Assembly (NCBI GenBank): GCA_963767925.1
Contig: CAVYGB010000009.1
Location: forward strand, 160,001-224,000
DNA length: 64,000 nt
DNA from: an uncultured delta proteobacterium
GTDB lineage: Bacteria; Myxococcota_A; Polyangia; Fen-1088
Reading direction: 5' to 3'
In this document: in pieces, positions 4,076-24,990 of the stretch
Numbering within the stretch: the first letter of the stretch is position 1
How the letters are laid out: every line of letters begins with the position of its first letter
Program-made: the position numbers and the translations under genes
The notes under the pieces: model-generated
Told to the model about the DNA's origin: nothing
Seen by the model: the letters and a program-made list of their open reading frames with translations, nothing else
The model's database searches: none

Positions 4076-4464
4076 GACGGAGCGGGGTGGCCGCTCGCGC
4101 CGAGGTGCCGCTCCAGGAGCTGGGGCAAAGCCCGGGTGTCGATCGGCTTGGTGACGTAGGCGTCGCAGCCGGCGGCGAGGGCCCGCTGCTCGTCCCCCTT
4201 CATGGCGTAGGCCGTGATGGCGATGATGACCACGCCCTTCATCCTGGGATCGGCCTTGATCCGGCGGGTGATCTCGAACCCGTCGATGCCCGGGAGCTGC
4301 AGGTCCATGAGGATGAGCCGGGGCCGGAAGTCGCTGAGGGTGGCGAAGACCTCGCCGGCGTCGACGGCGGTGCGCACTTCGTACCCCGACTTCTCCAGCA
4401 GGAAGGTCATCAGCTTCATGTTGGAGGGGTTGTCGTCGACGATCAGGATGGGCTCACCTGCCAT
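4072..4464 (-). CDS. Single-domain response regulator (DivK/CheY-like)
   Basis: ILIVDDN, LILMDLQLPGIDG, ITAYAMKGD, YVTKPI; overlaps both neighbours. Confidence 0.93.
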   Translation of the reverse strand: MAGEPILIVDDNPSNMKLMTFLLEKSGYEVRTAVDAGEVFATLSDFRPRLILMDLQLPGIDGFEITRRIKADPRMKGVVIIAITAYAMKGDEQRALAAGCDAYVTKPIDTRALPQLLERHLGASGHPAPS

Positions 4465-7925: not shown

Positions 7926-7977
7926 ATCACCTCTCCCGCTTGCGGCGAGGTCGGCGCGTCTGCGCGACGGGTGAGGG
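7926..7977. repeat. REP-like intergenic palindromic repeat (CCTCTCCC...GAGG...GGGTGAGGG family)
   Basis: Close match to the copy at 29546-29606 (ATCACCTCTCCC...GAGGTCGGCGCGTCT.CGCG.CGGGTGAGGG). Confidence 0.7.
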
Positions 7978-8055
7978 ACGCCCGACCTGGCAAACGGGCA
8001 GCGGGTCCAGACGGACGCCCTCGATCTGGCGCGGCGTTGTAGTAAAAACAGCGAG

Positions 8056-11000
8056 ATGGGTGTGTTCGGGTATGGTCGGCCGGGCGAGATCTACCGGGGC
8101 ACGCGCTACGTGGTGACGCGGCGAACCCGGGCCGGGCAGCAGGTGGTGGTGAAAGCGGTGCGGCCCGAGTGCCCCGATCTGGCCGGGGCCCGCGCGCGGC
8201 TGGATCACGAGCACGCGCTGCTCGTCGATCTGCGCCTGCCGGGCATCGTGCGGGTGGCGGGGCTCGAGGATGGGGACAGCGGGGCGGCCCTGGTGCTGGA
8301 GGACGCTGGCCAGCAGACCCTCGAGCAGTGGCAGGGCCGGCGGCCGCTGGCCCCCGAGCGGTTCCTGCCCATCGCCACCGGGCTGGCCGAGGCCCTCACC
8401 CGCCTGCACGACCGCCGCATCATCCACCGGGACATCAACCCCACCAACGTCGTCATCGGCGAGGGCGGGCGGGTCACTCTGATCGACTTCGACGCCGCCA
8501 GCGCGACCGACGGGCCCGCCGATCGCGGCGGGGTGCCGGCCCACCGGGGGACCGCCCTGGCCTACTGCTCGCCGGAGGAGACCGGGCGGGTGGGGCGCCT
8601 TGTCGACGGGCGCGCCGACCTGTATTCGCTGGGGGCGACCTTCTACGAGATGTTGACCGGGGCCCCGCCCTTCGTGACCCGCGACCCGGTCGAGCTGGTG
8701 CACGCCCACCTGGCCCGCTCGCCGCTGCCGCCCGCCCAGGCCAACCCGGCGGTGCCCGAGCTGCTGTCGGAGCTGGTGCTCAAGCTGCTGGCGAAGATGC
8801 CCGAGGCCCGCTACCAGAGCGCCGACGCGCTCCTGTGGGATCTGCGCGAGGCCGAGGCGCGCCTGCGCAGCGCCGGGGACATCGACCGCTTCGAGCTGGG
8901 GCTGGCCGACCTGGCGCGCGAGCTGGCCCTGCCCGAGACGCTGTACCAGCGCGAGCAGGAGCGGGCGGCCCTGCTGGGTGCCTGGGATCGCGCCGCCACC
9001 GGCGATCGAGGGGTGGTGGTGCTGGCGGGGCCCGCCGGGGTGGGCAAGTCGGCCCTGGCCGCCGAGCTGCGGGGGCCGGTCGGCCGCCGCAGCGGCCGGC
9101 TGCTCACCGGCAAGGCCGAGCTGCGCCGGAGCAGCACCCCCTACGCCCCGGTGGTGCAGGCCCTGCAGCAGCTCGCCGCCAGCCTGCACGCCCAGGCCGA
9201 GGCGGGGGAGGAGGGGGCGCGCACGGCCCGGCGGCTGCAAGAGGCGCTCGGCAGCAACACGCGCGTTGTCACCGACCTGTGCCCCGAGCTGGAGCCGCTG
9301 GCGGGGACGGCGCCGCCGCTGCCCGCGCTGGGGCCGATCGAGACCGAAAATCGCTTCTGCCTCACCCTGCGCGCCTTCGTGCAGGCGCTGGCCACCGCCG
9401 AGCGCCCGCTGGTGCTGCTGATAGAGGACCTGCAGTGGGTCGACCCCGCCTCCTTGCGCCTGCTGCGCGTGCTGGCCGATCGCCCGCACCTGCACCACCT
9501 GCTGCTGGTCGTGACCTGCCGGAGCGAGGAGGTGGGGTCCGAGCACCCGGCCCGCTCGACCCTCGAGGCCCTCCTCGCCGATGGCCCGCCCGCCGCGGTG
9601 GCCATCGAGCTGCCCGCTCTGACCGTCGAGGCGATCACCGCCTTCTGCGGCGCGGCCCTGCGCTGCGAGCCGGAGCGGGCCCGCCCGCTGGCCGAGCTGG
9701 TGCTGCGCAAGACGGGGGGCAATCCCTTCTTCGTGCGCCGGCTCCTGCGTTACCTGCACAAGGAGGATCTGCTCGGCTTCGATCGGGGGGCGGCGACCTG
9801 GAGCTGGGACCTGGCCCGGATCGAGAACGTCGGCGTCACCGACAACGTCGCCGGCGTGTTGCTGGCCACGCTGGCCCGGCTGCCGTTTGCCGTGCAGGTC
9901 GCGGTCCGCACCGTGGCCTGCCTGGGTCACCAGGCTCCCCTCGGCACGGTGGCGGCGGTGACCGGGCAGACCCGGGAGGCCACCGCGGGCGCGCTGCAGG
10001 TCGCGGTCAAGGAGGGGCTGCTGGTGGCGCTCGACGCCGAGGCGGGGCCCAGCGCGCCCGACGCCTCCTTCCAGTTCGTCCACGACCGGGTCCAGCAGGC
10101 GGCCTATTCGCTGCTGTCGGAGGCGGATCGGCGGGCGGTCCACCTGAGCGCCGGGCGGCAGCTCCTGCGCGAGCGGGCCGGCGGCCCCCTCGACGACCGC
10201 CTGTTCGCGGCGGTCGATCAGTTCGAGTCGGCGGCGCCGCTGGCCGACCCGGCCGAGCGGCTGGCGGTGGCCGAGCTGAACCTGCGGGCGGCCGATCGGG
10301 CCCGGGCCTCCTCGGCCTACGCCTCGGCCCTGGTCTATCTGCGCCGGGGGATCGCCCTGTTCCCCGCGGAGGCCACCCCCGAGCAGGCGGCGCTCGCCTT
10401 CACCTTGCACCGGGACGCCCTGGCCTGCGCCTGCCTGATCGCCGAGGGCGAGCAGGTGGACGAGCTGTTCCGGGCCGCGCTCGCCCTGGCCCGCAGCCCC
10501 GCCGACCAGGCGGAGCTGTACTGGATCCGGGCCCGGGATCGCATCACCGCCCTCGACAACCGCGACGCCCTGTACTGGGTGCAGGCGGGGCTGCGCCTGT
10601 TCGGGGCCGAGCTGCCCGAGGTGGCCCCGGGGGCAGCGCTCGGCGAGGAGCTGGCGGCCCTCGCCGCGGAGCTGTCCGGGCGCCGGGCCGACGACCTGCT
10701 CGCGGTGTCGGGTACGCCCGATCCCGATCACCGGGTGATCATGGACCTGCTGGCGACCGCCCTCACCGCGACCTACTTCGAGCGCCAGGACCTGTGGCCG
10801 GTGGTGCTGGCCCGCCTGGTGAGCCTCTCGCTGCGCCGGGGCCTGGCCCGCAGCTCGCCGTTCGCCTTCACCTGCTTCGGAGTGCTGCTCTCGCGACAGG
10901 GGAACTACCCGGCCGGGCTGCGGGTGGGCCGCCTGGCCATCGAGCTGGTCCAGCGCATGGGCGACCCGGTGGAGGAGTGCCGCACGGTCAACGTGTTCGT

Positions 11001-13659
11001 CTCCATCCTGAGCGCCTGGCTCGAGCCGCTCGACAGCCGCCTGCCCCTGCAGCGCGAGGTCCAGGTGCGGGGCCTGGCCGCCGGCGAGCTGACCTTCGGG
11101 TTCACCGCCTCGACAACCGTCGCCGTCTTCATGTTCCACCGGGGGGCCGAGCTGTCGCGGGTGCTGGCCGAGCTCGAGACCGGGATCGCCCTGGTGCGCA
11201 CCACCCGGATGACGGCCGAGCTGGAGATGCTGATCGGCTGCCAGCGCGTGGTCCACCACCTGACCGGGCTGTCCCCGGGCGGCGGCTGCGTCGAGCCGGA
11301 GGGGCAGCCCTGCCGGCACGTGACCCTCTGGCTGGCCAACGCCTACCTGTTCCGGGACTTCGCCGGGGCCCGGGGCCTGCTGGCGGCCTCGGAGGCCTCC
11401 CTGCCCACCGCGACCCGCTCGGTGACCATCGTCGACCACACCCTCTATGCCGCCCTCGTGCAGGCCGCCGGCTGGGAGGTGGCGGAGCCGGCCGAGCAGG
11501 CGCGGCTGCGCGCGGCCATCACCGCCGGCGAGCGGCAGCTCGCGGGCTGGGCCGCCGGCTGCCCGGAGAATTACCGGCAGAAGTGGCTGCTGCTGCAGGC
11601 CGAGCTGGCCCGCATCGAGCAGCGGCCGTTCGAGGCGGCCGAGCTTTACGACGAGGCGATCGAGACGGCCGGGCGGCAAGCGTTCCTGCGGGACGAGGCG
11701 CTGGCCGCCGAGCTGGCCGGGCGTTTTCACCGGGCCCAGGGGCGCAAGCGCTTCGCGGGCCTCTATCTCGGGCAGGCCCTCGAGGCCTACCTGCGCTGGG
11801 GCGCGCGGGCCAAGGCCGAGGCGCTGGAAGAGGAGTTCCCCGAGCTGCGGCAGGACCTGGGGAGCCCCGCCCCGGCGCGCGATCCGGATTGGGACGACGC
11901 CCGCGGGGCCGACCTGGATCTGGTGACCCTGCTGCGGGCGGCGGAGGCCATCGCCGGCGAGGTGGTGCTGAGCCGTCTGCTCGGCAAGCTGATGGAGGTC
12001 TGTCTGGCCACCGCGGGGGCCGAGCGCGGCGCCCTGGTCCTCGAGGAGGAGGGGGGACCGTTCGTGCGCGCGGTCGGCTCCATCTCCGACGGGGTCGCCC
12101 TCACGCGCGAGCCCGCCCTGTCCGGCCGCTACCTGCCCGCCGCGGTGGTCGAGCGGGCGCGCCGCGACGGCGAGACGGTGGTGCTGGCCGACGCCTCGGC
12201 CCACGAGGAGCTGGGCCAGGACCCCTACCTGGCGGCCGGGGCCATCCGCTCGGTGCTCGCCACCCCGATCGTGCGCCAGGCCAAGCGGGTGGGGGTGCTG
12301 TACCTGGAGAACAACCTCGCCACCCGGGTGTTCACCGCCGGGCGGGTGCAGATCCTGCAGCTCCTGTCGGCCCAGATCGCCATCGCCCTCGAGAACAGCC
12401 TCCTGTTCGAGGAGCTGACCCACGAGATCGAAGATCGGCAGCGGGCCGAGACGGCGCTCGGCTTCCTGGCCGAGGCGGGCGCCGCCCTCAGCGAGTCGCT
12501 CGACCACGAGCGCACGCTGGCCCGGCTGGCCCGCCTGGCCGTCTCCTTCCTGGCCGACTGGTGCGCGGTCGAGCTGTCGGGGCCGGTCCCGGGCCAGCGG
12601 GCCGCGGTGGCCCACCGGGACCCGGCCCGGGAGGTGGGCTTGCAGGGGCTGTTCCCCCGGCCGAAGGAGGAGGGGGCCCGCGAGGCCGTCCCGCGCACCT
12701 TCGAGACCAGCCGATCGGTGCTGTTCAGCGACCTCTCGGAGACGACGCTCGGCCAGTTCCTGCCCGACCCGGAGGTACGCGGACGCTTCAGGGCCCTCGG
12801 CGGGCGCAGCGGCATGATCCTCCCGCTGGTGGCTGGCGACCGGTGGCTGGGGGTGATCGCCCTGGTCTCGGACGATCCCGATCGCCGCTACGGCCCCAGG
12901 GAGCTGGCGCTGGCCGAGGAGCTGGCCCGCCGGGCGGCGGCGGCCATCGACAACGCCCGCCTGTACCGGGAGGCGCGTGAGGCGGTCCGGCTGCGCGACG
13001 AGTTCCTGTCGATCGCCTCGCACGAGCTGAACACCCCCATCGCCTCGCTGCAGCTCCTGGCCCAGGCGATCGAGCAGGGCGACCTCGATCCCACCCGGCC
13101 CACCATCACCGCCACCATGCGGATCATCTCCCGCCAGACCAAGCGGCTGGCCGGGCTGGTCAAGGAGCTGCTCGACGTCTCGCACATCCAGGGCAAGTGG
13201 CTGCACCTCGACCGGCAGCCGGTCGACCTCGGCGAGCTCGTGCAGGAGACGGTGGCCCGCTTCGCCGAGGACCTGCGGCGGGCCGGCTGCGCGCTAACCG
13301 CCGAGGTCGACGCCGGAGTGGTGGGGCGCTGGGACCGGGCCCGCCTCGACCAGGTGATCACCAACCTCCTCGGCAACGCGGTGAAGTTCGCCCCCGGCAA
13401 GACGATCGAGATCGAGGCCCGGGCCCGGGGCGGCAAGGCCCACCTGGCGGTGCGCGACCACGGCATCGGCATCCCCCAGGAGCGCATCCCCCACATCTTC
13501 GGGCGCTTCGAGCGCGCGGTGTCGGCCGCCCACTACGGCGGCCTCGGCCTGGGCCTGTACATCGTCCACGAGATCGTCGTGGCCCACGGGGGGACGGTGG
13601 CGGTGCAGAGCGCCGAGGGCAGCGGCTCGACCTTTTCGGTAGAGCTGCCGCTGGCCTGA
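8056..13659 (+). CDS. Multidomain Ser/Thr kinase-AAA ATPase-GAF-GAF-histidine kinase
   Basis: IIHRDINPTN and AYCSPE kinase motifs; GPAGVGKS Walker A, LLIEDLQW; KTGGNPFF; FVHDRVQQAAY; GAF (GVLYLENN); SHELNTP H box; GGLGLGL. Confidence 0.95.
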   Translation: MGVFGYGRPGEIYRGTRYVVTRRTRAGQQVVVKAVRPECPDLAGARARLDHEHALLVDLRLPGIVRVAGLEDGDSGAALVLEDAGQQTLEQWQGRRPLAPERFLPIATGLAEALTRLHDRRIIHRDINPTNVVIGEGGRVTLIDFDAASATDGPADRGGVPAHRGTALAYCSPEETGRVGRLVDGRADLYSLGATFYEMLTGAPPFVTRDPVELVHAHLARSPLPPAQANPAVPELLSELVLKLLAKMPEARYQSADALLWDLREAEARLRSAGDIDRFELGLADLARELALPETLYQREQERAALLGAWDRAATGDRGVVVLAGPAGVGKSALAAELRGPVGRRSGRLLTGKAELRRSSTPYAPVVQALQQLAASLHAQAEAGEEGARTARRLQEALGSNTRVVTDLCPELEPLAGTAPPLPALGPIETENRFCLTLRAFVQALATAERPLVLLIEDLQWVDPASLRLLRVLADRPHLHHLLLVVTCRSEEVGSEHPARSTLEALLADGPPAAVAIELPALTVEAITAFCGAALRCEPERARPLAELVLRKTGGNPFFVRRLLRYLHKEDLLGFDRGAATWSWDLARIENVGVTDNVAGVLLATLARLPFAVQVAVRTVACLGHQAPLGTVAAVTGQTREATAGALQVAVKEGLLVALDAEAGPSAPDASFQFVHDRVQQAAYSLLSEADRRAVHLSAGRQLLRERAGGPLDDRLFAAVDQFESAAPLADPAERLAVAELNLRAADRARASSAYASALVYLRRGIALFPAEATPEQAALAFTLHRDALACACLIAEGEQVDELFRAALALARSPADQAELYWIRARDRITALDNRDALYWVQAGLRLFGAELPEVAPGAALGEELAALAAELSGRRADDLLAVSGTPDPDHRVIMDLLATALTATYFERQDLWPVVLARLVSLSLRRGLARSSPFAFTCFGVLLSRQGNYPAGLRVGRLAIELVQRMGDPVEECRTVNVFVSILSAWLEPLDSRLPLQREVQVRGLAAGELTFGFTASTTVAVFMFHRGAELSRVLAELETGIALVRTTRMTAELEMLIGCQRVVHHLTGLSPGGGCVEPEGQPCRHVTLWLANAYLFRDFAGARGLLAASEASLPTATRSVTIVDHTLYAALVQAAGWEVAEPAEQARLRAAITAGERQLAGWAAGCPENYRQKWLLLQAELARIEQRPFEAAELYDEAIETAGRQAFLRDEALAAELAGRFHRAQGRKRFAGLYLGQALEAYLRWGARAKAEALEEEFPELRQDLGSPAPARDPDWDDARGADLDLVTLLRAAEAIAGEVVLSRLLGKLMEVCLATAGAERGALVLEEEGGPFVRAVGSISDGVALTREPALSGRYLPAAVVERARRDGETVVLADASAHEELGQDPYLAAGAIRSVLATPIVRQAKRVGVLYLENNLATRVFTAGRVQILQLLSAQIAIALENSLLFEELTHEIEDRQRAETALGFLAEAGAALSESLDHERTLARLARLAVSFLADWCAVELSGPVPGQRAAVAHRDPAREVGLQGLFPRPKEEGAREAVPRTFETSRSVLFSDLSETTLGQFLPDPEVRGRFRALGGRSGMILPLVAGDRWLGVIALVSDDPDRRYGPRELALAEELARRAAAAIDNARLYREAREAVRLRDEFLSIASHELNTPIASLQLLAQAIEQGDLDPTRPTITATMRIISRQTKRLAGLVKELLDVSHIQGKWLHLDRQPVDLGELVQETVARFAEDLRRAGCALTAEVDAGVVGRWDRARLDQVITNLLGNAVKFAPGKTIEIEARARGGKAHLAVRDHGIGIPQERIPHIFGRFERAVSAAHYGGLGLGLYIVHEIVVAHGGTVAVQSAEGSGSTFSVELPLA

Positions 13660-13678: not shown

Positions 13679-13750
13679 GGCCCCATGGTCTAGCGGTCAG
13701 GACGGCGCCCTCTCACGGCGCACTCCCGGGTTCGATTCCCGGTGGGGTCA
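13679..13750 (+). tRNA. tRNA-Glu (anticodon CUC), CCA not encoded
   Basis: Acceptor stem GGCCCCA/TGGGGTC; anticodon arm GCGCC-CTCTCAC-GGCGC; T arm CCGGG-TTCGATT-CCCGG. Confidence 0.93.
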
Positions 13751-15408
13751 CGCGCAAAGGTACACCTGCTTCTAGGTGCGCCGTCCCGTGGATCGCCCAG
13801 ACCTTGCGGCCGTCGGCCACGGTCGGGCGGAAGCTGAGCGAACCAGGTGGGAAGAGGGCCTGGATCGCCTCCCGCGTCCCGGCGCGGTCGGTGGCGAGAG
13901 CCTGGCGAAGCGAGGCCAGCTTCTGGCGGGCGGAGGTTTGCGCCTGGGCGAGGAACTCGCGGCGCACCTGGGGGAGGCGCCCTGCCACGGCCAGGTCGGC
14001 CTCGATCTGCTTGATGCGGGTCGATCGGCGCTGCAGCTCGGCGACCAGCTCGCTGACGTCAGGAGCGGCCGCCAGGGCAGCCGCGTACTTCTTCTGCTCA
14101 ACGCGGAGCTGTACGAGCTCGGTTTCCAGCGCTGTCGATTCGCTTGGCGCCGCCACGGCGCGCTCGATCTCCGCGGTGACGTCGGCGACGATGCGGTCGA
14201 CGACCTCCTCAGTGAGCACGGTCGCGCACATGTAGCGGACGAGCGCCCCCTCCACCTCGTCCACCGGCTGGCAAATCGTCACGGGGCAGACGGCCTCGCC
14301 GCGCTTGTGGTGCCAACCGCACGCGTACGCCGTCACCCGGCCGCGGCTGGTCTTCGTGTTCCGCGTGCTGATCCCGCCACCGCAGTGATCACACTTCCCG
14401 ATCCCGGCGAGCGCGTGCTTCGCGCCGCGCCCGACCTGGTATGTGCGGGCGCCCCGGTTCGGAAGCTCCGCCTGCACGGCCTCCCAGGTCGCGTCGTCGA
14501 TGATCCGCCACTCGGCGACGGGCACCCGCATCACGTGGGCGGGATCGGCGACCTGGGCACTCCGCTTGCCGCCGCGCTTGATCCGGTCCTTGCGTCCGTG
14601 GACGTAGAACCCGATGTACCGTTCACGGCGGAGGATATCGCGGACGGTGCTGGGGTCCCAGGAGCGTGTGCCGCGACGACCACGACCGGGTGACGGAATC
14701 CCTCGGCGGTTGAGGTCCTCAGTCGTTCGCTTCAGACCCCAGCCCTCGAGGCACATGCGAAAGATCCATCGGACGACCTCCGCCTCGCCCTCGTCGACCA
14801 CGGCCGCGGTGTACTGGCGGCCGCTCGGGTCCGACCTGCGCTCGTTCCTGTACCCGAAGCAGGGTGCCGCCAGCGATCCGGCCAGCCCGCACCCGCTGAC
14901 GGAGCGCCTCTCGCGTCCGGGAGCGGATGGCTTCCAGCTCCATCTGGGCGCCCACGCCTTGGATGAAGGTCATCGCCGCGTCGATCGCGGTCTGGAAGGC
15001 AACCTCCTGGCCGGAGCTGTAGTAGAAAAGTCGCGCGCGGCGATCGCGGACCAGCTCTCGGACCGTGACCGCCGAGTCGATCGCGTCGCGCCCGAGCCGA
15101 AAGTGGTCCCGGCAGACCACTACGTCGCCCGGGCCAACCTCCGCCAGCAACTTGCGAAGCGCCACACGCCCGGCGAAATCGTCGCCGGCGATACCATCGT
15201 CGACGTAGTCATGGACTCCCTCCCAGAGAACGGGAGACTCGCGGCGGCGGAGCCCCTCCGCGAAGCGGAGCGCACCTTCGCGCTGGGTGTCGATGCTGAA
15301 CTCCTGGCCCTCCTTCTCGGACCGGCGCAGGAGGATCCGAAGCGCCGGCTGGGACCGGACGAGCTTGAGATTCGAGTTGCGAGAACCGGGGCCGCTCGGG
15401 GAGGGCAT
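13713..15408 (-). CDS. Large serine recombinase (resolvase + recombinase + Zn ribbon + coiled coil), frameshift at ~14862-14864
   Basis: N-terminal LLRRS...Q...SIDTQ, YVDDGIAG, DHFRLGR; removing one C restores GGTCFGYRNER in frame with ORF 13713..14801 (CDHCGG, YACGWH...C); the ORF ends inside the tRNA. Confidence 0.9.
13738..13766. other. attL: tRNA-derived core plus element arm GGGTCACGCGCAAAGGTACACC
   Basis: Arm 13745-13766 is the reverse complement of 22385-22406 at 20 of 22 positions. Confidence 0.85.
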
Positions 15409-15440
15409 GGTCGCCAGATTGCCAGAGTCGCCGGGCAGGA

Positions 15441-15554
15441 TCAGCGCCCTTCGCGCAGCTCGTGCAGGATCTGTCTTGCCAGGACGCGGGCCAGCGCGCG
15501 CGCTACCTCCACCTTCGCCTCATCGCTAGGCTCTGGGAGTTGAAGGATGGGCAT
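15441..15554 (-). CDS. 37-aa helical peptide directly upstream of the recombinase (possible accessory or directionality factor)
   Basis: MPILQLPEPSDEAKVEVARALARVLARQILHELREGR; co-oriented and ends 32 bp before the recombinase start; function inferred from position only. Confidence 0.4.
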   Translation of the reverse strand: MPILQLPEPSDEAKVEVARALARVLARQILHELREGR

Positions 15555-15559
15555 TGGGG

Positions 15560-16058
15560 CTACGTCCCTTGGAGGCGACCTCTTCCAGAGCACCGCCATC
15601 GATGATGAAGGCACGAAGGGAACTGCCGTCTCGGTCCAGGGCGACGTTGCCGGTGTGAAGGTCCCCGTGGCAGCTTCGCCTCTCGATCCAGACAGGCCTT
15701 TCGAGTGAAGCCAGCCGTTGGAAGACGTCGGCCGGCTGGAGTCCGGATCCACTCGATCCCCACTTGCGAGCAACCTCCAGCAGGCCGGCATGCCTGTCCA
15801 GTCGCGCGGGCGACCACAGGAGAGATCGTAATGGCACCTCCTGTGGGGCGGAGCTCGGAAAGGACCGCAGCTGTGTCGCGATATCCGCCGCGATTTGTGG
15901 GGCAGCTGCCACGACGGCCTCCGGCGGGGAGCGCAGGAGCTCCGCGATGGAGACGGGCGGGTTCTCGGACGGACCCGCCTTGCCGGTGACCAGCAGCGAG
16001 GTCGTGCCGGAGGCCCAGCGGCCGATGACCTTGATGTGGTGGAGTTTGCTGTCCAGAC
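15560..16058 (-). pseudogene. Internal fragment of an APH/phosphotransferase-like kinase
   Basis: CHGDLHTGNV...AFIID motif in the frame of ORF 15526..16263; no credible N- or C-terminus. Confidence 0.6.
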
Positions 16059-16064
16059 GGACGG

Positions 16065-16490
16065 CCGAGGCACTACCTGGTCCAGTTTCGCCAGCTGCTG
16101 AGCGCCACCCAGGACAGCCGCAGGACGCTGCTGGCCGCGTACGCCGGATTGAAGGATTGGCGCAACCTGGGCTGGGTCGACACGCTGGACCTGGTTCACG
16201 CTCCCTGGTTCGACGGCATCGACGGGATCGATGACCTGCGCATGGCCGCAGATCTGACCGCACTCAACGTCGAGCAGGCGCAGAAGGTGTTCGGAGAGCT
16301 GAAGGAGCTTGACCAGCTGGAGCAGCATCCCCGGTACCGCCGCGACGGGTGGTTCCGCACCAAAGTGGACTCCATCCGACGGATTGCACGTCGCGCCCGA
16401 TCACACCGCATGGCGATTCTCAGGCAGATGCAGCTCCAGAACCAGGCCTTGAGCAAGGACGTGGCCAAGATCCGTCGCCTCCGCGACCGA
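16065..16490 (+). pseudogene. Fragment of an unknown helical protein
   Basis: Protein-like stretch KDWRNLGWVDTLDL...AKIRRLRDR that becomes out-of-frame junk at the junction with the radical SAM fragment. Confidence 0.4.
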
Positions 16491-17335
16491 TCGTCTCCAA
16501 TGCCAAGTTCGGCTCCACTCAGGACAAGGCGAAGCGGATCCAGGGCTCCTGGCGGGAAGCGGGGCTGTGTGAAGTCAATTTCAGCTGCGGCGAGTTTCAC
16601 CAGGAGTTCGTCCCCATCGAACACGTGGCCAACGCCTATCGAGCGGCCTGCGAGCTGGGATTCAAGACCGTCCTGCTGGCCGGAAACTTCCTGGCGCCGG
16701 GGCGCGGAAAGCTGGACCGCCGGATGTTCGAGGAGGCCGTTGGACGCCCGCTCATCGATGTACAGGACATGAGCCCGTACAGCGGATATTCGCACGGGAT
16801 GTCCGTCTCCGAATCGATGCCCTATGGGCGCGGGCGCGAGTTCGTGAATCCAGGGGACATCACCTTCCATCCGGTGGACAAGATTCCCAGTTGCTGCGAC
16901 CACATCCTGGTTGGCATCACCGCCCACCCCAACGGAAACACCACGGCTTGCTGCGGGATCATGGTCCGCCAGGAGTCGCTCCTGAACATCGGAAACTGGC
17001 GGCAGCAGACCCTGGCTGAAATTGTCGGACGCGCCCACCAGGATTTCGTGCTCAACTGGATCAAGTATCGCGGCCTGCGCGAGATGAAGACCTGGCTGGA
17101 GGCGCAGGATCCGGGTCTGAAATTTCGCAAGGAATATCAGAACATCTGCGATCTGTGCGCGGAGATCGTCTATAACCCGCGGGCTCAGGCGTTGCTGGCG
17201 AAGGGCGACGAGGAGATGCGCAAGCAGATCGTCGCCACCAAGGTGGTGACGGACGCAGTCCTCAATGCGCCTGACTTCAAGTATGAACCGTCGCGCGACC
17301 CGCTGGGACCGCCTCATGCTGAATCTCACGGATGA
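16490..17335 (+). pseudogene. 5'-truncated radical SAM/SPASM protein resembling YydG-type peptide-modifying enzymes
   Basis: IVSNAKF...AGLCEVNFSCGEFHQEFVP; CDHIL...PNGNTTACCG; NICDLC; the CxxxCxxC N-terminus is absent. Confidence 0.65.
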
Positions 17336-18482
17336 GCGGGCCATCCGGTCGCTGCGGGAATTCCTGCGCGAAGTCGGTTATGGCCCCGCCAGCCGGGTCT
17401 TCGCAGCGGCGAACGACGACCTGGTGTTCCCGCCGTTCCGGGAATTGCAGACCCTCCTCAAGGCGGCGAGCCCCTTCCACCGACTTCTGTTGAGTGTCCT
17501 GCGGCTGGGCCACGCGGCCTCGGAGAACCAGCTGGTGCGGGCCTTTGGCCGGGAAAACCTGGACCTGCTGCTGGGGCTCAACCTGCTGGTCGCCGACGAA
17601 CGCGGCGAGTTTCACACGCCCAGCCTGGCTCTCGTGGAGACGGCCGGCCTGAGCCTCGTCGTGAGCCTGCCCGCACACTATCCGACCGGCACCGTGCGAC
17701 AGCAGCCGGTCCACCTGGGTCCGGAAGCAAACTTTCTCGCTCGATCGCTCCCCGCTTCGCTCCAGGGCCAGGATGTGCTCGACGCCTGCAGCGGCGCCGG
17801 CCTGCAGAGCCTGATCTGCGCGTCGCGGGGGGCACGCCGGGTCGTCGGTCTCGACCGATCGCCGCTGGCGGTCAACTTTGCCCAATTCAACGCCCTGCTC
17901 AACGGCTTCGGGAAGACCGTCGAGTTCCGACAGTCGGACGTGCTTTCTGCTCTGGATCCTTCGGAGCGGTTCGACTACGCCGTCTCGCTGCCACCATTCT
18001 TGCCCCTGGCGGACCTCCTGGAGACCGCCACCCGGGCCGCCGACGGGACTGCAGTACTGGCGCCGGTCCTCGAGCAGCTGCCCCGCCATCTGGCAGAGGG
18101 TGCGGCCGGCCTCATCTACTGTCAGGCGTTCGGGGATCAACATCGCATCTTCCTCCATGACCGGTGCAAGTCGGGTCTGAAGGCGGCAGGTGTTGAGGTC
18201 ACCGCATTCGTGCTGGCGAAGCTGCCGCTGCGGATACATTCCGATCGGGTGCTCGACACCCTGCGGCGCGCCGCCTTCGACGTGACCCGGGAAGACCGGG
18301 AACGAGCCGCCGCAACCTGGACCGCTCAGATGCAGGACGCGGGAGTCGAATTCGTCTACAGCGAGCTCCTCGACCTTCGGCGTACCCACGCCGAGCCGAC
18401 CTTCTCGCAGGTCCCGGTCTACGACGCCAAGATGACAGATCCTCTGGTGACCGCGGTCAAGATGAATCGCATGGCGGTATGA
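17316..18482 (+). CDS. Class I SAM-dependent methyltransferase (HemK/PrmC-like, long N-terminus)
   Basis: VLDACSGAG motif I, VVGLDRS, FDYAVSLPPF (NPPY-like); overlaps the radical SAM stop. Confidence 0.85.
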   Translation: MLNLTDERAIRSLREFLREVGYGPASRVFAAANDDLVFPPFRELQTLLKAASPFHRLLLSVLRLGHAASENQLVRAFGRENLDLLLGLNLLVADERGEFHTPSLALVETAGLSLVVSLPAHYPTGTVRQQPVHLGPEANFLARSLPASLQGQDVLDACSGAGLQSLICASRGARRVVGLDRSPLAVNFAQFNALLNGFGKTVEFRQSDVLSALDPSERFDYAVSLPPFLPLADLLETATRAADGTAVLAPVLEQLPRHLAEGAAGLIYCQAFGDQHRIFLHDRCKSGLKAAGVEVTAFVLAKLPLRIHSDRVLDTLRRAAFDVTREDRERAAATWTAQMQDAGVEFVYSELLDLRRTHAEPTFSQVPVYDAKMTDPLVTAVKMNRMAV

Positions 18483-18495
18483 AGCGAAGTCCGAA

Positions 18496-18969
18496 ATGGT
18501 GTCCGACATGATCTCCGAAAAAGCGTCGAGCCACGATCGCCCTCTGCACCACAACGCGGTCCACGTTGGCCGCCGCGTCGGCGCCGCCATCATCACGGCG
18601 GGTTTGCTGGTGGCGAGCATCGCCGTGGCGTACGACAGCCGGAATCCTGCTCATCTGATCGGACTTCTGCTTCCCGCCACCGTGTTCGCGCTGAGCTGGC
18701 CCACCATCTGGCGCTCGAGCCGGGTTTTTGCCTCGGATCTGGGGCTGCGGATCGAATCCGGCGGCGAAAGCCGATTCGTTCCCTGGCAGTCGGTCACGGG
18801 CGTCGCCGTACCCTCCTGGGTGATCAATCCGGTTGCCTGGTTCGAGCCCCGGGCTATCACCTTGCGTGACGGCTCGCGCGTGCTGTTTTTCCCGGCGCCT
18901 GGCGCGGTGGCCCTGGTGAACGCCCGGGTGCAGGCCGAGCCGGGCACCCCGGAACGAAGCCGGGCCTGA
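18496..18969 (+). CDS. Small membrane protein (2 TM + PH-like domain)
   Basis: Two hydrophobic segments then GLRIE...FVPWQSV, typical of bacterial PH-like tails. Confidence 0.6.
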   Translation: MVSDMISEKASSHDRPLHHNAVHVGRRVGAAIITAGLLVASIAVAYDSRNPAHLIGLLLPATVFALSWPTIWRSSRVFASDLGLRIESGGESRFVPWQSVTGVAVPSWVINPVAWFEPRAITLRDGSRVLFFPAPGAVALVNARVQAEPGTPERSRA

Positions 18970-18976
18970 AGACGTC

Positions 18977-19669
18977 GTGTCGCAAGACCCCAGTCCCGGC
19001 CCCCCGGCCTCCGCCAGCGATGGTCTGACGCCGGGGGCGGTCGCCGGCGTCGCTGCGGTTCCAGCAGTCATTGCGCTGGCCATCCGGGCCTTCGGATTCG
19101 AGCTCCATTTGGCGGTGGTGCTCGCGGGTGCATTCGGCTGGGTCATCGCCCTGGTGCTGCGCCCTGTGGTGGCGGCGCTCGCGAAGCGCATGGGCGTGAG
19201 AGGTCGGGCCTTGCAAGTGGTCGTGGTGGGCTCGTCGGGGCCGCTCGAAGAGGGCGTGCGCCTGCTGGTCCTGATGTCCTGTGCGCGATCGCCCGAAACC
19301 GCCCTTTCGGTCGGATTCGGGTGGGCGACCGTCGAGGTGGCTTTCACCCTGGTCGGCTCGATCATCACCCGGCTGGTGCGCAATCGGGCGGGCATTCCAG
19401 CGGAGAACGCGCAACCGACCAACGCACCTCGGCCGTCACCGGCCTGGGGCGTGCTCGAGCGACTCTGGGCGAGCGGCCTGCACCTGGGCTTCAGTCTCGC
19501 GATCGCGGCCTACGGCCTGCTCGTGGTCCCGGCCGCGGCGGCACACTCCGCGACCAACCTGCTGGTCTGGCGCGCGCTCTCCCGAGGCCAGGGGATAGCC
19601 CGCCTGGAAGTCGTCGGCACCGTCTGGAGCGTGCTCGTTCTCCTGGTGGCGAGCGCCCTCTGGTGGTGA
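18977..19669 (+). CDS. YhfC/PrsW-like intramembrane glutamic/metalloprotease
   Basis: Multi-TM; GPLEEGVR, GWATVE, LERLWASGLH, AHSATN motifs. Confidence 0.75.
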   Translation: MSQDPSPGPPASASDGLTPGAVAGVAAVPAVIALAIRAFGFELHLAVVLAGAFGWVIALVLRPVVAALAKRMGVRGRALQVVVVGSSGPLEEGVRLLVLMSCARSPETALSVGFGWATVEVAFTLVGSIITRLVRNRAGIPAENAQPTNAPRPSPAWGVLERLWASGLHLGFSLAIAAYGLLVVPAAAAHSATNLLVWRALSRGQGIARLEVVGTVWSVLVLLVASALWW

Positions 19670-19709
19670 GCATCCCGTGGAAAAACAACTCCCGATCTCT
19701 GGAGAGCCC

Positions 19710-21161
19710 ATGACTGATCTTGATCGTCGTCTTGCCCCCGGAAAACCCGTCGGCGCGCCATCGGTGGCTAGCTGGGTGCTGGCTTGTTGCCTTGCCGCTG
19801 CCTGTGCATCGCGGCCGGCGATCACGCCCGCGCCGATGGCGCCCGCTTCGCCGACGTCGGCGGTGTCCCCTTCGCCGGTCTCACCTCCTCCGGACGTGGG
19901 CGCGGCGGCCCGGTCGACGACCCCCGAACAGGTCGGCGAGCTGGTCTGGTCGGCCTTCCGGGCGGGAGACCTGGCGGCGGTTCGTTCCCGCTTCGATGCC
20001 CGGATGGCGGCTGCCCTTTCGCAGGAAAAGCTGACCCAGGTGTGGAGCGGAATGACGACGATGGTCGGCCGGCTCGAGAGCTGGACTCTCTCCGAGAACC
20101 GCCCGGAGGGCGAGGTCACGCTCCTCGTCTACACGTTGTCGCTGACCGGGGGTCATGTGCAGGGCCGCCTGGCGCTCGATCGTGAGCTGGCCATCGCGGG
20201 GCTTTTCTTCACGCCCCTTCCTCCCCCCGCAGTGAAGTCGGGCGCCGACGGACAGACGCCCGCTGCCCCACCGGGCGTTCGCTCCGAAGCGGTCCGCGTG
20301 GGCCAAGCGCCATGGGAGCTCGCGGGCGTGCTCACCGCGCCAGCCTCGCCAGGCAAACACCCCGCTGTGGTCCTGGTGGGCGGTTCAGGGCCTCTGGACC
20401 AGGACGCCACCGTGGGGCCCAACAAGCCCTTGCGCGATCTGGCGGAGGGCCTGGCCGTTCGCGGCATCGCGACGCTCCGTCATGAAAAGCGCACGTTCGC
20501 CCACCGGGACCGCCTCAGCAACGACATCACCGTCGAGCAGGAGGTGATCGCCGATGCGGTCCTGGCGCTCGCCCTGCTTCGTGCACGCCCCGAGGTCGAT
20601 CCCGACGCCGTCTTCGTCGTGGGCCACAGCCTGGGTGCCCAGCTGGCTCCAGTCATTGCCGAGCGAGACGGGAGCGTGGCGGGGCTGGTCCTGCTGGCGC
20701 CGCCCGCCCGGCGCATGGCGGACGCCATTGTGGATCAACTGCGATACCTCGGTCAGGCCCCCGAGCAGGACCTGGCGGCGCTCGCCAGCAAGGCAAAGGC
20801 CATCTACGACGGCGTGGCGCCCCCCGGGGAGACGTTCCTGGGTGCGCCGGCCGCCTACTTCGTGGATCTCGAGCGGCGTGACGCCATGGGGGTTGCGCGC
20901 AAGCTGGGCAAGCCGATGCTCGTGCTGCGCGGAGCACGCGACTACCAGGTCGTCGAAAGTGACTTTCGCGCGTGGCGGGCGCTGGTCCAGAAGGTGCCGG
21001 GCTCGACGGCGGCGACCCTGCCGGGGCTGAACCATCTCTTCATTGCGGGGAAGGGAAAGCCTGGCTCGGCAGAGTATGCCACGCCCGGTAAGGTGGCCGA
21101 CTCGGCGCTCGACCGGATCTCATCGTTCGTGAAACGGCACAAGCGCATGGCGCACCGCTAA
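19710..21161 (+). CDS. Lipoprotein alpha/beta hydrolase with DUF3887-like N-terminal domain
   Basis: LAAAC lipobox; FDARMAAALS; GSGPLDQD; GHSLG nucleophile; DYQV; LNH. Confidence 0.85.
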   Translation: MTDLDRRLAPGKPVGAPSVASWVLACCLAAACASRPAITPAPMAPASPTSAVSPSPVSPPPDVGAAARSTTPEQVGELVWSAFRAGDLAAVRSRFDARMAAALSQEKLTQVWSGMTTMVGRLESWTLSENRPEGEVTLLVYTLSLTGGHVQGRLALDRELAIAGLFFTPLPPPAVKSGADGQTPAAPPGVRSEAVRVGQAPWELAGVLTAPASPGKHPAVVLVGGSGPLDQDATVGPNKPLRDLAEGLAVRGIATLRHEKRTFAHRDRLSNDITVEQEVIADAVLALALLRARPEVDPDAVFVVGHSLGAQLAPVIAERDGSVAGLVLLAPPARRMADAIVDQLRYLGQAPEQDLAALASKAKAIYDGVAPPGETFLGAPAAYFVDLERRDAMGVARKLGKPMLVLRGARDYQVVESDFRAWRALVQKVPGSTAATLPGLNHLFIAGKGKPGSAEYATPGKVADSALDRISSFVKRHKRMAHR

Positions 21162-21612
21162 CGTCGACGATTCGTCACCGGGCGCCGGAGCAGTCGAAAG
21201 GCCCGGACTGGCCCGGGTTGTCACAGGCTGACCGGAAACGAGGGCGATCAGGTGCCGTGCGGCCGCCCCTCAAATGGGCTTCTCGCTGGCGCCGGGGCGC
21301 ACGGGTCGTGGAAACTTTTTGGCGTACCACCCCGAAGGATGGGGCATGGGAAACCCGCCCGCTTGGTCACCCGGCCGCTCCTCGACATCAGGGGCCTGAA
21401 CGGTGGACGCGCCAAACTTCGCCCTGAGAGAGTTGTCCTGAGGCGCCGGATCGCCGAACTGCTGGCCACGGTGGGTGCGCCGAGCGCGAGGTGAAGGCCG
21501 GCGGCGCTGTTCGTGGGGCCTAAGCCTGGCCTAAGCCCGCCGAAATCCAACTCCAATGGACCGGCGGTTTCCGCGTTGCCCAGGTGCCCCCGCAGCCAAC
21601 GGCTGGATCCGA

Positions 21613-21984
21613 TCACCTTCCGATCGGCAGACGTCGAACGCGGATGCGAGCCTGATCGAATACCACGATCGCTCCTGCTTGCAGGTCGGCGTCGACAGCC
21701 GAGAGATTCGCCAGCAGGAGCTGGAGCTGACGATCGGGTCGGCGTTCCGTGCCGTGGCGAAAGAGAATCACGGAGGGCAGGGCGATGTCGAGCGTTGCGA
21801 GGAGTGTCCCAAAATCGGTATCCGCGGAGATCACGACGCGTTTTTCGACGGCCGCACGAGTGAGGATCTCCCGGTCGGACGAGGTCTGCATGCCATAGTC
21901 GCGAACATGAACTGCGTCGTGCCCGGCATTGCGCAGGCCCTCGGCGACCGTTGGGGAGAGCGCGTTGTCGACCAGGAATCTCAA
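21613..21984 (-). CDS. DUF5615 PIN-like toxin (VapC45-like)
   Basis: [10 protein letters not shown]...HDAVHV...DREIL...ISADTDFG. Confidence 0.88.
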
Positions 21985-22211
21985 GCCACGGTCTTGAGAG
22001 GAAGCTCGCGCTCCCGCACGGCTTCAGCCGCGTACCGCAGAGCTTCGCCGATGTCGGCGCGCTCCAGGTCTGGGTAGGCGGCGAGGATCTCGTCATGAGT
22101 CATGCCGTCAGCGACCATGGCTACAACCGTCGCCACAGGTATGCGTAGACCGCGGATGCAGGGTTGCCCCCCCATCTGGTCCGGCTGGAGAGTGATCCGT
22201 TCGTACCTCAT
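21981..22211 (-). CDS. DUF433 antitoxin
   Basis: [22 protein letters not shown]...[10 protein letters not shown]; 4-bp overlap with the toxin start. Confidence 0.92.
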
Positions 22212-22384
22212 GACAAGATCCCTATTGTGCCACAGGTCAGCGGTGACCGTCCTGGCGCGCCGCCCAACGATCGGCGATCTTGCCGGTGCATCGGTGTCGA
22301 GCCCGGTTTCGGCTGCCTGGGCGGTGGCACGACCGTGCTGCCTCATGCCGCACGCCGCGCGACGAGAATCACCGGGATTTCCAG

Positions 22385-22417
22385 GGTGTACCTTTGCGGA
22401 TGACCCGGTGGGGTCAC
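22385..22417. other. attR of element 1, also the left junction of a second tandem element
   Basis: GGTGTACCTTTGCGGATGACCC arm plus core CCCGGTGGGGTCAC; followed by a related arm ACGCAAATGTGGAC. Confidence 0.85.
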
Positions 22418-23268
22418 ACGCAAATGTGGACGGCGAGATCTTCGCCGTGCCGGAGATTGCCCACACGCGTCGGCCGCCGGCCTCGGCGGGGGCGAAGCAG
22501 AGGGCGCCGGGCCCGAACAGAGCCTGGAACACCTCCCGCATGCCGGACGGGTCGCCGGCGAGGGCCTGCCTGAGGTCGGCCAGCTTGCTCCGTGCCGAGG
22601 CCTCCACCCGGGCCAGCAGCTCGCCGCGGACATGCGGGGCGCGCTTGGCGGCCGCCAGGTCTCGGTCGATCTGGGCGAGGCGCTCCCCGCGCCTTTTCAG
22701 CTCGACGATCAGCTCCTGAACGTCCGGCACCGCCGCCACTGCCGCGCGTACTTCTTCTGCTCCCCACGCAGGCGTTCGCGTTCGGCTTCGAGGGCGACGA
22801 CGTCCGACGGTTCCGCGGCCGCCCGCTCGACCTCCACCCGGATCTCGCGGAGTACCTGGCCGACCACGGCCTCGGTGAGGATGGTCGAACGGATGTAGTC
22901 GACGAGCGCGCCCTCGATCTCGGCGACAGGCTGGCAGAGGGTCACGGGGCAGACCGCCGAACCGCGGCGATGGTGAAAGCCACAGCCGTAGCCCTTGATG
23001 TGGCCTCGGCTGTCTCTCGTGTTCCGGACAACCATGCGACCGCCGCAATGGGCACAGGTGCCGATGCCGGCCAGGGGATGCTTCGAGGCCCGGCCGGCGG
23101 CGTAGTATGCGGCGCCCGGCTCGCTTCCTGCCCGCGGGCGTCCCGCTGGCGCTCGTTCCGGTATCCGAAACAGCGACCGCCGGCGACATGCCCCGCCCTC
23201 ACGCGCGCGCGGATGCCTTCGCGGGTCCGGGAACGAATCGCCTCCAGCTCCAACTGGGCGCCGACCCC
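22407..23268 (-). pseudogene. Decayed second large serine recombinase, paralogous to the first
   Basis: QGVGAQLELEAIRSRTRE...GGRCFGYRNER; YGCGFHHRRGSAVCPVTLCQPV; RRVWAISGTAK; lacks the catalytic N-terminus, has a large internal deletion near 23120 and a frameshift near 22740. Confidence 0.85.
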
Positions 23269-23274
23269 CTGGTC

Positions 23275-24192: not shown

Positions 24193-24515
24193 AAAATTGA
24201 GAGTGTGAGGGGAGATCAAAGAGCATCGGGTATCCACGCCAGGTCTTCTCAAGGAGCCGCGTGAGGAGGTCATCCAGGGTCTTGGGGTACTTAGGCGAGA
24301 GCAGGCGATCGAATTTACGGGCCCGAGCTAGAAGGTCCGGGGGGACGTCGAAACCAGCCACGATGGCGAGAAACTCTTCCAGCCGAGTGGGATCACGAAG
24401 GTCGATGATCCTCTCGACGGTGCCGCTGACCGAGAGATAGGTTACCGATTCTCTCTCTGTTAGGGCGATTTCCTCTCTGCTCAGGCCGGTTGGCTCTTCG
24501 AGCTTGTACCCGTAG
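24193..24515 (-). pseudogene. Internal fragment of a probable RES-domain protein
   Basis: Lower-GC frame EEIALTERESVTYLSVSGTVERIIDL...WRGYPMLFDLPSHSQ, cut at the repeat array; family recalled by eye. Confidence 0.5.
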
Positions 24516-24990
24516 GAGGCAAACCGCCACAGGAGTCCGAGACCTCGATCAGAAGGCGCCCCTCGTGTCGCCGCCCGGAGACCCTGACGCGTCCCTCGAG
24601 AGGGGTAAACTTGATTGCGTTCAAAAGCAGGTTCGTGACCGCTGAGCGCAGCAGCCGAGGGTCGGCCTCGAGAACCAGATCCTCAGGAACAGAGAGCTGA
24701 ATCTCGATGTCTTTGATCTGGGCCTCGCCGGCCGAGTCCAGTCGGATCTCTTCCAGGAAGTCCCGTACACGGAGCGCTTCGGGTCGGACCGTAACCCCCA
24801 GCTTCAGCGAAGCGTGGGTCAACGTGGTATCAATCATGTCGGCGGTGCGTTTGAGATTCCTTTCGAGGAGATCGACTGCCCGCCCGCCCTGGGAGAGCTC
24901 CTGCAATCGCAAGCGGTGCAGGGCCAACCGCGCGGCCGATATAGGGTCGCGTAGCTCATGCGCAATGAACCCGAGGTGCTCGGACGCCTG
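24516..24990 (-). pseudogene. Histidine kinase fragment (HisKA + partial HATPase)
   Basis: GFIAHELRDP, NLLLNAIKFT, VSDSCGGLP; ends before the G2 box. Confidence 0.75.

Follow-up and report, generated by a model that had tools for sequence, protein, structure and literature searches.

A serine integrase gene that spans its own attachment site at tRNA-Glu and may encode a recombination-state-dependent C-terminal tag

The closest described systems carry an attachment site inside a gene. In myxophage Mx8, the phage attachment site (attP) lies within the integrase coding sequence; integration creates a new 3' end, and the enzyme is active with changed properties (excerpts of PMC6070905 and PMC4383910). 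In mycobacteriophage BPs, both the integrase Int and the repressor Rep are C-terminally tagged for proteolysis, with integration removing the tag of Rep and ClpXP-type proteases acting as an input (excerpts of PMC3694055). SSV-type archaeal integrases also have the recombination site within the integrase open reading frame (ORF) (excerpts of PMC7253208 and PMC4383910). Mx8 and BPs had been named as precedents in a first-pass annotation of the DNA considered here, and what it said of them agrees with these excerpts. That DNA, the window, is a 64,000-nucleotide stretch of contig CAVYGB010000009.1 from an uncultured delta proteobacterium of Myxococcota_A. It contains an 8,666-bp element, integrated at 13743-22408 at the 3' end of a tRNA-Glu(CTC) gene, whose serine integrase gene, int1, runs across its own attP.

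Mx8 has myxobacterial hosts and a tRNA-gene target. Insertion of large cargo into genomes relies mainly on serine integrases, whose control is generally ascribed to a coiled coil and a separate directionality factor. The serine integrases phiC31, Bxb1, A118 and SPbeta SprA have attP outside the gene and use protein-coding genes as targets, and a 2014 survey reportedly described tRNA-gene targeting as unknown for the class. An ssrA-like degron consists of a nonpolar L-A-A-type C-terminus on an unstructured tail. A literature search over full texts returned no paper on a serine integrase gene that spans attP at a tRNA, nor one on such an enzyme with a tail resembling a degradation tag, and passages of PMC12884075 and PMC12424338 contain nothing on this. 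The novelty of the locus is that the logic of Mx8 and BPs appears here in a serine integrase.

In the integrated state, the int1 ORF crosses attL, reads antisense through the last third of tRNA-Glu and ends ...RVTPPGIEPGSAP. The first-pass annotation had proposed this read-through, and the ARAGORN tRNA call together with the translation bears it out. It had also predicted a second tail in the same frame once attL and attR are joined; a scripted join at the core reproduces it as 19 residues after ...TPPG, with RRAA at the end and a TGA stop at 22343-22345. The 19 stored tail codons occupy 22346-22403, and the crossover at 13742-13743 lies upstream of them, about 26 codons ahead of the free-form stop. 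Integration exchanges these last 19 residues, stored beside attR, for 7 residues encoded by the antisense tRNA. The initial ~7 codons of the free-form tail form the P arm, while the other ~12 lie outside the ~50-bp site. This state-dependent swap of the integrase C-terminus is well supported.

The best explanation, at a probability of roughly 0.55, is an element of tRNA-Glu whose int1 gene spans its own attP and whose free-form-only tail is a regulatory tag, most likely an ssrA-like proteolysis signal. The free element would encode an integrase with a disordered tail ending in Ala-Ala (AA), and integration would replace that tail with antisense-tRNA residues. As an ssrA-like signal, the tail would make the free-form integrase short-lived; the prophage-form enzyme, lacking the tag, would be stable and at hand for excision. 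This type of signal is favoured because of the terminal AA on a disordered end and because of the BPs precedent, and a protease-tag role is plausible from the tail sequences.

Domain composition places the enzyme among the large serine recombinases. The minus-strand ORF from 14801 to 13713 matches PF07508 at 83.9 bits and PF13408 at 24.2 bits, just below the 25.3 cut-off, and PF00239 scores 61.5 bits on 14719-15408, in a frame that differs from the remainder of int1. The resulting order is Resolvase, Recombinase and zinc ribbon, and precomputed annotation places the zinc ribbon on most full-length relatives. Examination of int1 for tyrosine recombinase chemistry found only serine-recombinase domains in Pfam.

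Like Mx8 IntP/IntX, the window integrase has an ORF that crosses the crossover point, so integration rewrites its 3' end. Unlike Mx8, whose enzyme is a tyrosine recombinase that swaps a large C-terminal segment, the window element encodes a large serine recombinase, has a palindromic attP of ~50 bp and exchanges a short disordered tail ending in AA; it does not belong to the Mx8 family. As in BPs, attP sits inside a gene with a tag-like C-terminal end and upstream of that end. BPs differs in that attP crosses the repressor gene and the phage's tyrosine recombinase, Int, carries the tag whether integrated or not; in the window element attP crosses the integrase gene, and the integrase would lose its tail. 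The SSV-type enzymes are also tyrosine recombinases, and integration splits and inactivates their gene, whereas the window element undergoes only a tail exchange that leaves the folded protein whole. The window element shares with phiC31, Bxb1, A118 and SPbeta SprA the domain order of Resolvase, Recombinase and zinc ribbon with coiled coil, and a short symmetric attP with a central dinucleotide. Unlike these phage-type large serine integrases, the window enzyme shows <30% identity to any member of the phage and plasmid collections searched.

The attachment sites are defined by a repeat at the two ends of the element. ARAGORN finds a single tRNA in the window, tRNA-Glu(CTC), and the 13-nt exact core CCCGGTGGGGTCA occurs at 13738-13750 and 22404-22416 and nowhere else in the window. 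A core search that tolerates one mismatch gives two window matches, a number also reached in 2 of 100 shuffles, and a repeat search extends the direct repeat to 24 nt with 2 mismatches (13738-13761 and 22404-22427). Joined in silico, attL and attR yield a ~50-bp attP that is a 20/24 palindrome about the central dinucleotide GT (+ strand), whereas the best of 2000 random 98-nt window stretches scores 17/24 and attL, attR and the reconstructed attB score 12, 16 and 11 of 24. The joined site is short and has inverted-repeat arms and a central dinucleotide, as a serine-integrase attP should. Its 14-nt outer arm GGTGTACCTTTGCG has exactly three copies in the 9.3-Mb genome: the two arms of the element and the arm of a paralogue on contig C8. 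That the element integrates by attP x attB recombination is suggested by its integrated state and by the tandem array described below. Publicly assembled contigs of three soil-metagenome runs contain pieces at least 99% identical to parts of the element, the best match sharing 0.14 of the words, with coverage that stops short of the frameshift and both att sites. The listed joints have sides of 20-24 nt and look like chance or other organisms, and no excision junction was seen in these contigs, which do not reach the att sites.

Homologue searches show that this arrangement is widespread. A search seeded by the intact C8 paralogue gave 199 proteins, and 86 of the 120 listed have C-terminal peptides resembling an antisense tRNA T-arm, with each of the three frames represented, as judged from peptide patterns rather than DNA (G[FILV]EP, xRTR, DSNP, or a stop within the T-loop). 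At the DNA level, an opposite-strand tRNA lies at the integrase stop in 29 of 41 genome-collection loci (28 tRNA-Glu and 1 tRNA-Lys) and, among 29 metagenome or viral loci, in 20, each with tRNA-Glu. The close relatives are Myxococcota metagenome-assembled genomes (MAGs), and for more distant ones, which include Acidobacteriota and members of other phyla, the site is a tRNA-Leu, Phe or Met. An initial reading of the element as actinomycete was rejected in view of these Myxococcota relatives. A C-terminal search with P0012 returned 2 proteins only, and relatives in the phage and plasmid collections all stay below 30% identity, with no characterised close homologue among them. Placing attP inside the integrase gene is shown to be the normal design of a large clade that comprises Myxococcota-type and more distant tRNA-targeting serine integrases, mostly at tRNA-Glu.

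The tails of these relatives fall into two types. A second search, among 50%-identity cluster representatives and seeded by the integrase of L123, a phage-like metagenome contig in the attP form, listed 150 proteins; pooling the listed matches of both searches without the window's own product gives 265, and dropping 31 truncated ones leaves 234 with a C-terminal region. AA ends occur in 1 of 139 tRNA-antisense tails (for which [VLIFSTC]A ends were not counted) and in 26 of the 95 other tails, a further 13 of which end in [VLIFSTC]A. Since 1.4-1.7% of all stop-terminated frames in the source genome end in AA, the excess in non-tRNA tails is significant against background (binomial P = 5e-24) and against tRNA-type tails (Fisher P = 1e-10). 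The first-pass annotation would have been contradicted by homologues without a conserved in-frame tail; these counts and an AA-ending join in the relative L026 did not refute it. A profile of 41 A-type tails (39 of the 95, plus the window and L123) has alternating hydrophobic residues at -3, -5, -7 and -9, and the motif [VILFMA]P[VILFMCW], often [IVL]-P-[FV], is present in 18 of these 41 compared with 6 of 139 tRNA-type tails. On a FastTree phylogeny of the protein bodies (215 rows, 480-640 residues, last 45 residues removed), the A-type versus tRNA-type state changes 24 times over 37 A-type tips; such interspersion would be expected if the same lineages occur in two states, not if the tail types formed two clades.

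DNA-level reconstructions give direct views of the free-form tail. L123 has the palindrome at the same core position and a tail ending ...ILTAA, and L050, a 9.2-kb MAG contig, is also in the attP form, with an 18/26 palindrome. For five integrated loci (L026, L041, L028, L023 and L043), 50-60 kb of extra upstream DNA was taken. In L026 the repeat is 17 nt long and lies 47.6 kb upstream; the join ends ...IPFNLLAVAAAA, with AAAA following an IPF motif. For L041 the repeat measures 16 nt at a distance of 20.7 kb, and the join contains IPFRF; for L028 it measures 12 nt at a distance of 39.6 kb, and the join reads ...IDFVALR plus 9 residues. Symmetric 7-nt outer arms, different for each element, appear in all three joins and support the attR assignments, and in each the integrase ORF spans the crossover. 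Serine-integrase-type attP symmetry at the same core position is found in all five of L123, L050, L026, L041 and L028. L023 and L043 showed no convincing attR in the extra DNA, and an earlier scan of up to 10 kb upstream of integrated relatives, for exact repeats of at least 12 nt and for symmetric arms, gave nothing above control; 12-nt repeats at L030 and L037 were judged to be chance.

With the window counted and a doubtful C8 site left out, all 6 verified free-form tails carry the hydrophobic motif, and 3 of the 6 end in AA. An AlphaFold2 model of the L123 integrase, built from an 81-row alignment, has a mean predicted local distance difference test score (pLDDT) of 91 and a predicted template modelling score of 0.82, with long helices at residues 393-499. 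Residues 540-564, the core-encoded part and the tail, fall below pLDDT 50 and are predicted to be disordered and accessible. The model places the crossover in a disordered extension past the last folded element, so the enzyme should come through integration undamaged, and its tail would lie exposed. It is well supported, from sequence and prediction, that the free-form tail is conserved, under selection and tag-like: short, predicted disordered, with alternating hydrophobics, often [IVL]-P-[FV], and usually Ala-Ala.

Several results weigh against the proteolysis-tag reading. Tail classes of the 234 relatives were set by peptide patterns, not DNA, and 56 of the 95 non-tRNA tails have neither an AA nor a [VLIFSTC]A end, though many of these may be tandem junctions or broken genes. 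Compared with an ssrA-like degron, AA comes last in 26 of the 95, and position -3 in the 41 A-ending tails is most often R (12, against L 10 and V 5), where ssrA has L; the window tail itself ends RAA. The conserved, strand-like hydrophobic motif beside the AA would also suit a docking peptide instead of a degron. Among the tails read or joined at the DNA level, L050 ends ...DFLALS, L041 ends PAG, L028 ends GDG, and the C8 element joined in its own frame gives LLSW, a 4-residue non-AA tail. In addition, the window's int1 is frameshifted, which may have disabled the switch in this copy. The earlier proposal of an integrase whose stability or directionality is set by its recombination state is thus partly supported: the tail swap and the conservation of the tail are well supported, and the step to proteolysis or directionality is an inference.

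The foremost alternative has the tail act on recombination rather than stability, by directly changing the activity or specificity of the enzyme. Here the free-form isoform would serve attP x attB, and the tail-less one would favour excision with a directionality factor or reduce re-integration, much like Mx8 IntP/IntX. This is unlikely, although it draws some support from the strand-like hydrophobic motif and from how often R occupies -3: alternating hydrophobics before the AA suggest a binding peptide more than a simple degron, each isoform is produced exactly in the state that needs its reaction, and Mx8 integration alters the integrase 3' end and specificity without inactivation (excerpts of PMC6070905). 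AlphaFold2, however, leaves the tail undocked on the monomer (pLDDT <50), no directionality factor was identified in the element, and enrichment of terminal AA marks C-terminal degrons rather than known control elements of serine integrases. Two further accounts are less likely still. The swap would be a neutral by-product of genome compaction, and its tails functionless, if attP simply overlaps a dispensable integrase end. The use of all three antisense tRNA frames by integrated tails, the predicted disorder, free-form lengths that vary from 10 to 41 residues and the tails without AA all agree with this, but AA ends at 16-fold over background among 50%-identity cluster representatives and the recurrence of the hydrophobic motif in A-type tails make it improbable. 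The least likely account holds that DNA is conserved rather than peptide, either as a site next to the P arm or because the integrase stop overlaps the beginning of the following gene. The window's free-form stop does overlap an ATG (ATGA) of the frame leading into the DUF433 gene, the L123 stop overlaps the GTG that opens ORF 3991-4440, and C8 keeps a homologous stretch out of frame with its integrase; yet an overlapping start fixes only the last codon and neither the penultimate Ala nor the hydrophobic pattern, and tail sequences differ widely while keeping their residue classes, with DNA for only a handful of cases.

Whether the switch operates in the window itself is a separate matter. The element may be a dead relic, with a frameshifted integrase in a decaying tandem array, and the odds of this fall only somewhat short of even. 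A one-base frameshift separates the catalytic domain from the remainder of int1, the plot of GC content at third codon positions (GC3) changes frame at ~14850, and the adjoining int2 is heavily degraded. Against this, attP has almost perfect arms, and the stored tail can still be read in frame without interruption. The sole internal indel in 1.69 kb of alignment to the intact paralogue is one extra C at ~14864, inside a C run, and the ratio of nonsynonymous to synonymous substitution rates (dN/dS) is 0.16, similar in both halves; together, these indicate that the break is very recent or an assembly error. The assembly, in 13 contigs at 83.8% completeness, could have indel errors. The int1 copy is either recently inactivated or mis-assembled.

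Beyond the element itself, the proteolysis-tag reading leads to a broader proposal, offered tentatively. It describes a large, previously undescribed clade of tRNA-targeting serine integrases in which recombination acts as a covalent switch: an AA tail would cause rapid proteolysis and be removed by integration, setting integrase lifetime, commitment to integration and readiness for excision. Such a system would be a serine counterpart of BPs control, independent of Mx8. A clade that changes its own C-terminus at each recombination would add a regulatory layer to serine integrases and, if real, would offer a design principle, a recombination-state-dependent protein tag. It would also mean that myxobacterial elements came to the Mx8 solution twice, via unrelated enzymes.

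The same genome carries an intact 564-residue paralogue on contig C8 (1959731-1961425), with 86.8% nucleotide identity to int1, which reads into a second tRNA-Glu and ends ...TPPGIEPGIAP. The window and C8 elements have only the tRNA and the integrase in common, and their cargo is unrelated. Within the C8 element (C8:1941267-1961472, part of which is contained in L012), the core repeat lies 20.1 kb away, and the P arm is not symmetric to the P' arm; this attR may be decayed or part of another element. The homologous stretch in C8, sharing CCCGGTGAT, is off the integrase frame and ends ...RRRMAV in another frame.

Directly right of attR lies int2, a related integrase remnant without a catalytic domain and ~125 internal residues and with several frame changes. 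Its position beyond attR indicates a tandem array, in which the window element entered a tRNA end previously rebuilt by an older one. The int2 frame across the core gives ...CDPTG, exactly the frame of the intact relatives P0007 and P0025. No third core copy was found that would mark the far end of the older element; the DNA that follows int2, to ~25250, is low in GC and has a HATPase_c fragment at 24481-24927. The pairs L017/L036 and L024/L037 each have two related integrases on one contig, 27-28 kb apart in equal orientation, with the downstream integrase adjoining tRNA-Glu and the upstream one bearing a non-tRNA tail, which suggests that tandem arrays at tRNA-Glu are common. The features of the window are collected in the table.

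Table. Features of the integrated element and its surroundings, in window coordinates.
Feature	Position	Strand	Basis and remarks
tRNA-Glu (anticodon CTC), intact	13679..13751	+	ARAGORN; last ~9 nt come from the element
int1 C-terminal part: Recombinase domain, zinc ribbon, long helices, integrated-state tail from antisense tRNA	13713..14861	-	Translation, Pfam; stop 13713-13715
attL core, also present at attR	13738..13751		Repeat search; inferred crossover dinucleotide GT 13742-13743 is the centre of the in-silico attP palindrome
int1 frameshift site, extra C	14862..14866	-	Alignment to paralogue: GGCACCCTGC vs GGTG-CCTGT in the intact paralogue
int1 N-terminal catalytic (Resolvase) domain, different frame from remainder	14866..15408	-	Translation, Pfam PF00239, frame plot
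Cargo: five same-strand ORFs	16349..21161	+	Pfam, GC3 frame analysis
DUF433 (21981-22214) and DUF5615/PIN-like (21613-21984) pair at attR end	21613..22214	-	Pfam, E 5.8e-25 and 9.5e-25
Stored int1 free-form tail: 19 codons + TGA	22343..22403	-	Script join; in frame with int1 only once attL x attR have recombined
attR: core 22404-22416 and P arm, whose 14-nt arm 22385-22398 mirrors 13753-13766	22385..22417		Crossover GT 22408-22409
int2: related serine integrase remnant, crosses the core in another frame	22437..23271	-	tblastn, translation

Two further observations concern relatives on viral or phage-like contigs. In L084, from a viral collection, the own-frame tail at 7981-8070 is non-AA, and another frame through the core ends ...VVPAA, which would fit a junction with the P arm of a neighbouring element. 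The L123 contig (70-13558) resembles a small temperate phage or plasmid, with many small same-strand ORFs and genes for a Mom-like protein, an N6/N4 DNA methylase, the integrase, an Xre-type helix-turn-helix protein and Bro-N.

No conjugation or phage structural genes were recognised in the window element. Its cargo includes a class I methyltransferase (17265-18482) and a DUF3887/alpha-beta hydrolase (19677-21161); among the other ORFs of this operon, one has a weak SPASM match (E 0.0016) and two have no Pfam matches. The DUF433 and DUF5615/PIN-like genes overlap by 4 nt and look like a toxin-antitoxin pair. The DUF433 frame is open upstream (22215-22348, minus strand) to an ATG at 22346-22344, the one that overlaps the free-form stop of int1, and GC3 favours this frame across 22200-22500; the open stretch could be an N-terminal extension or allow translational coupling in the free form. 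On the other side of the tRNA, a 1,894-residue open frame (7975-13659, plus strand) stops just ahead of it; paralogous matches to its final 660 nt are numerous in the genome and in relatives, a pattern typical of a sensor-kinase family expansion.

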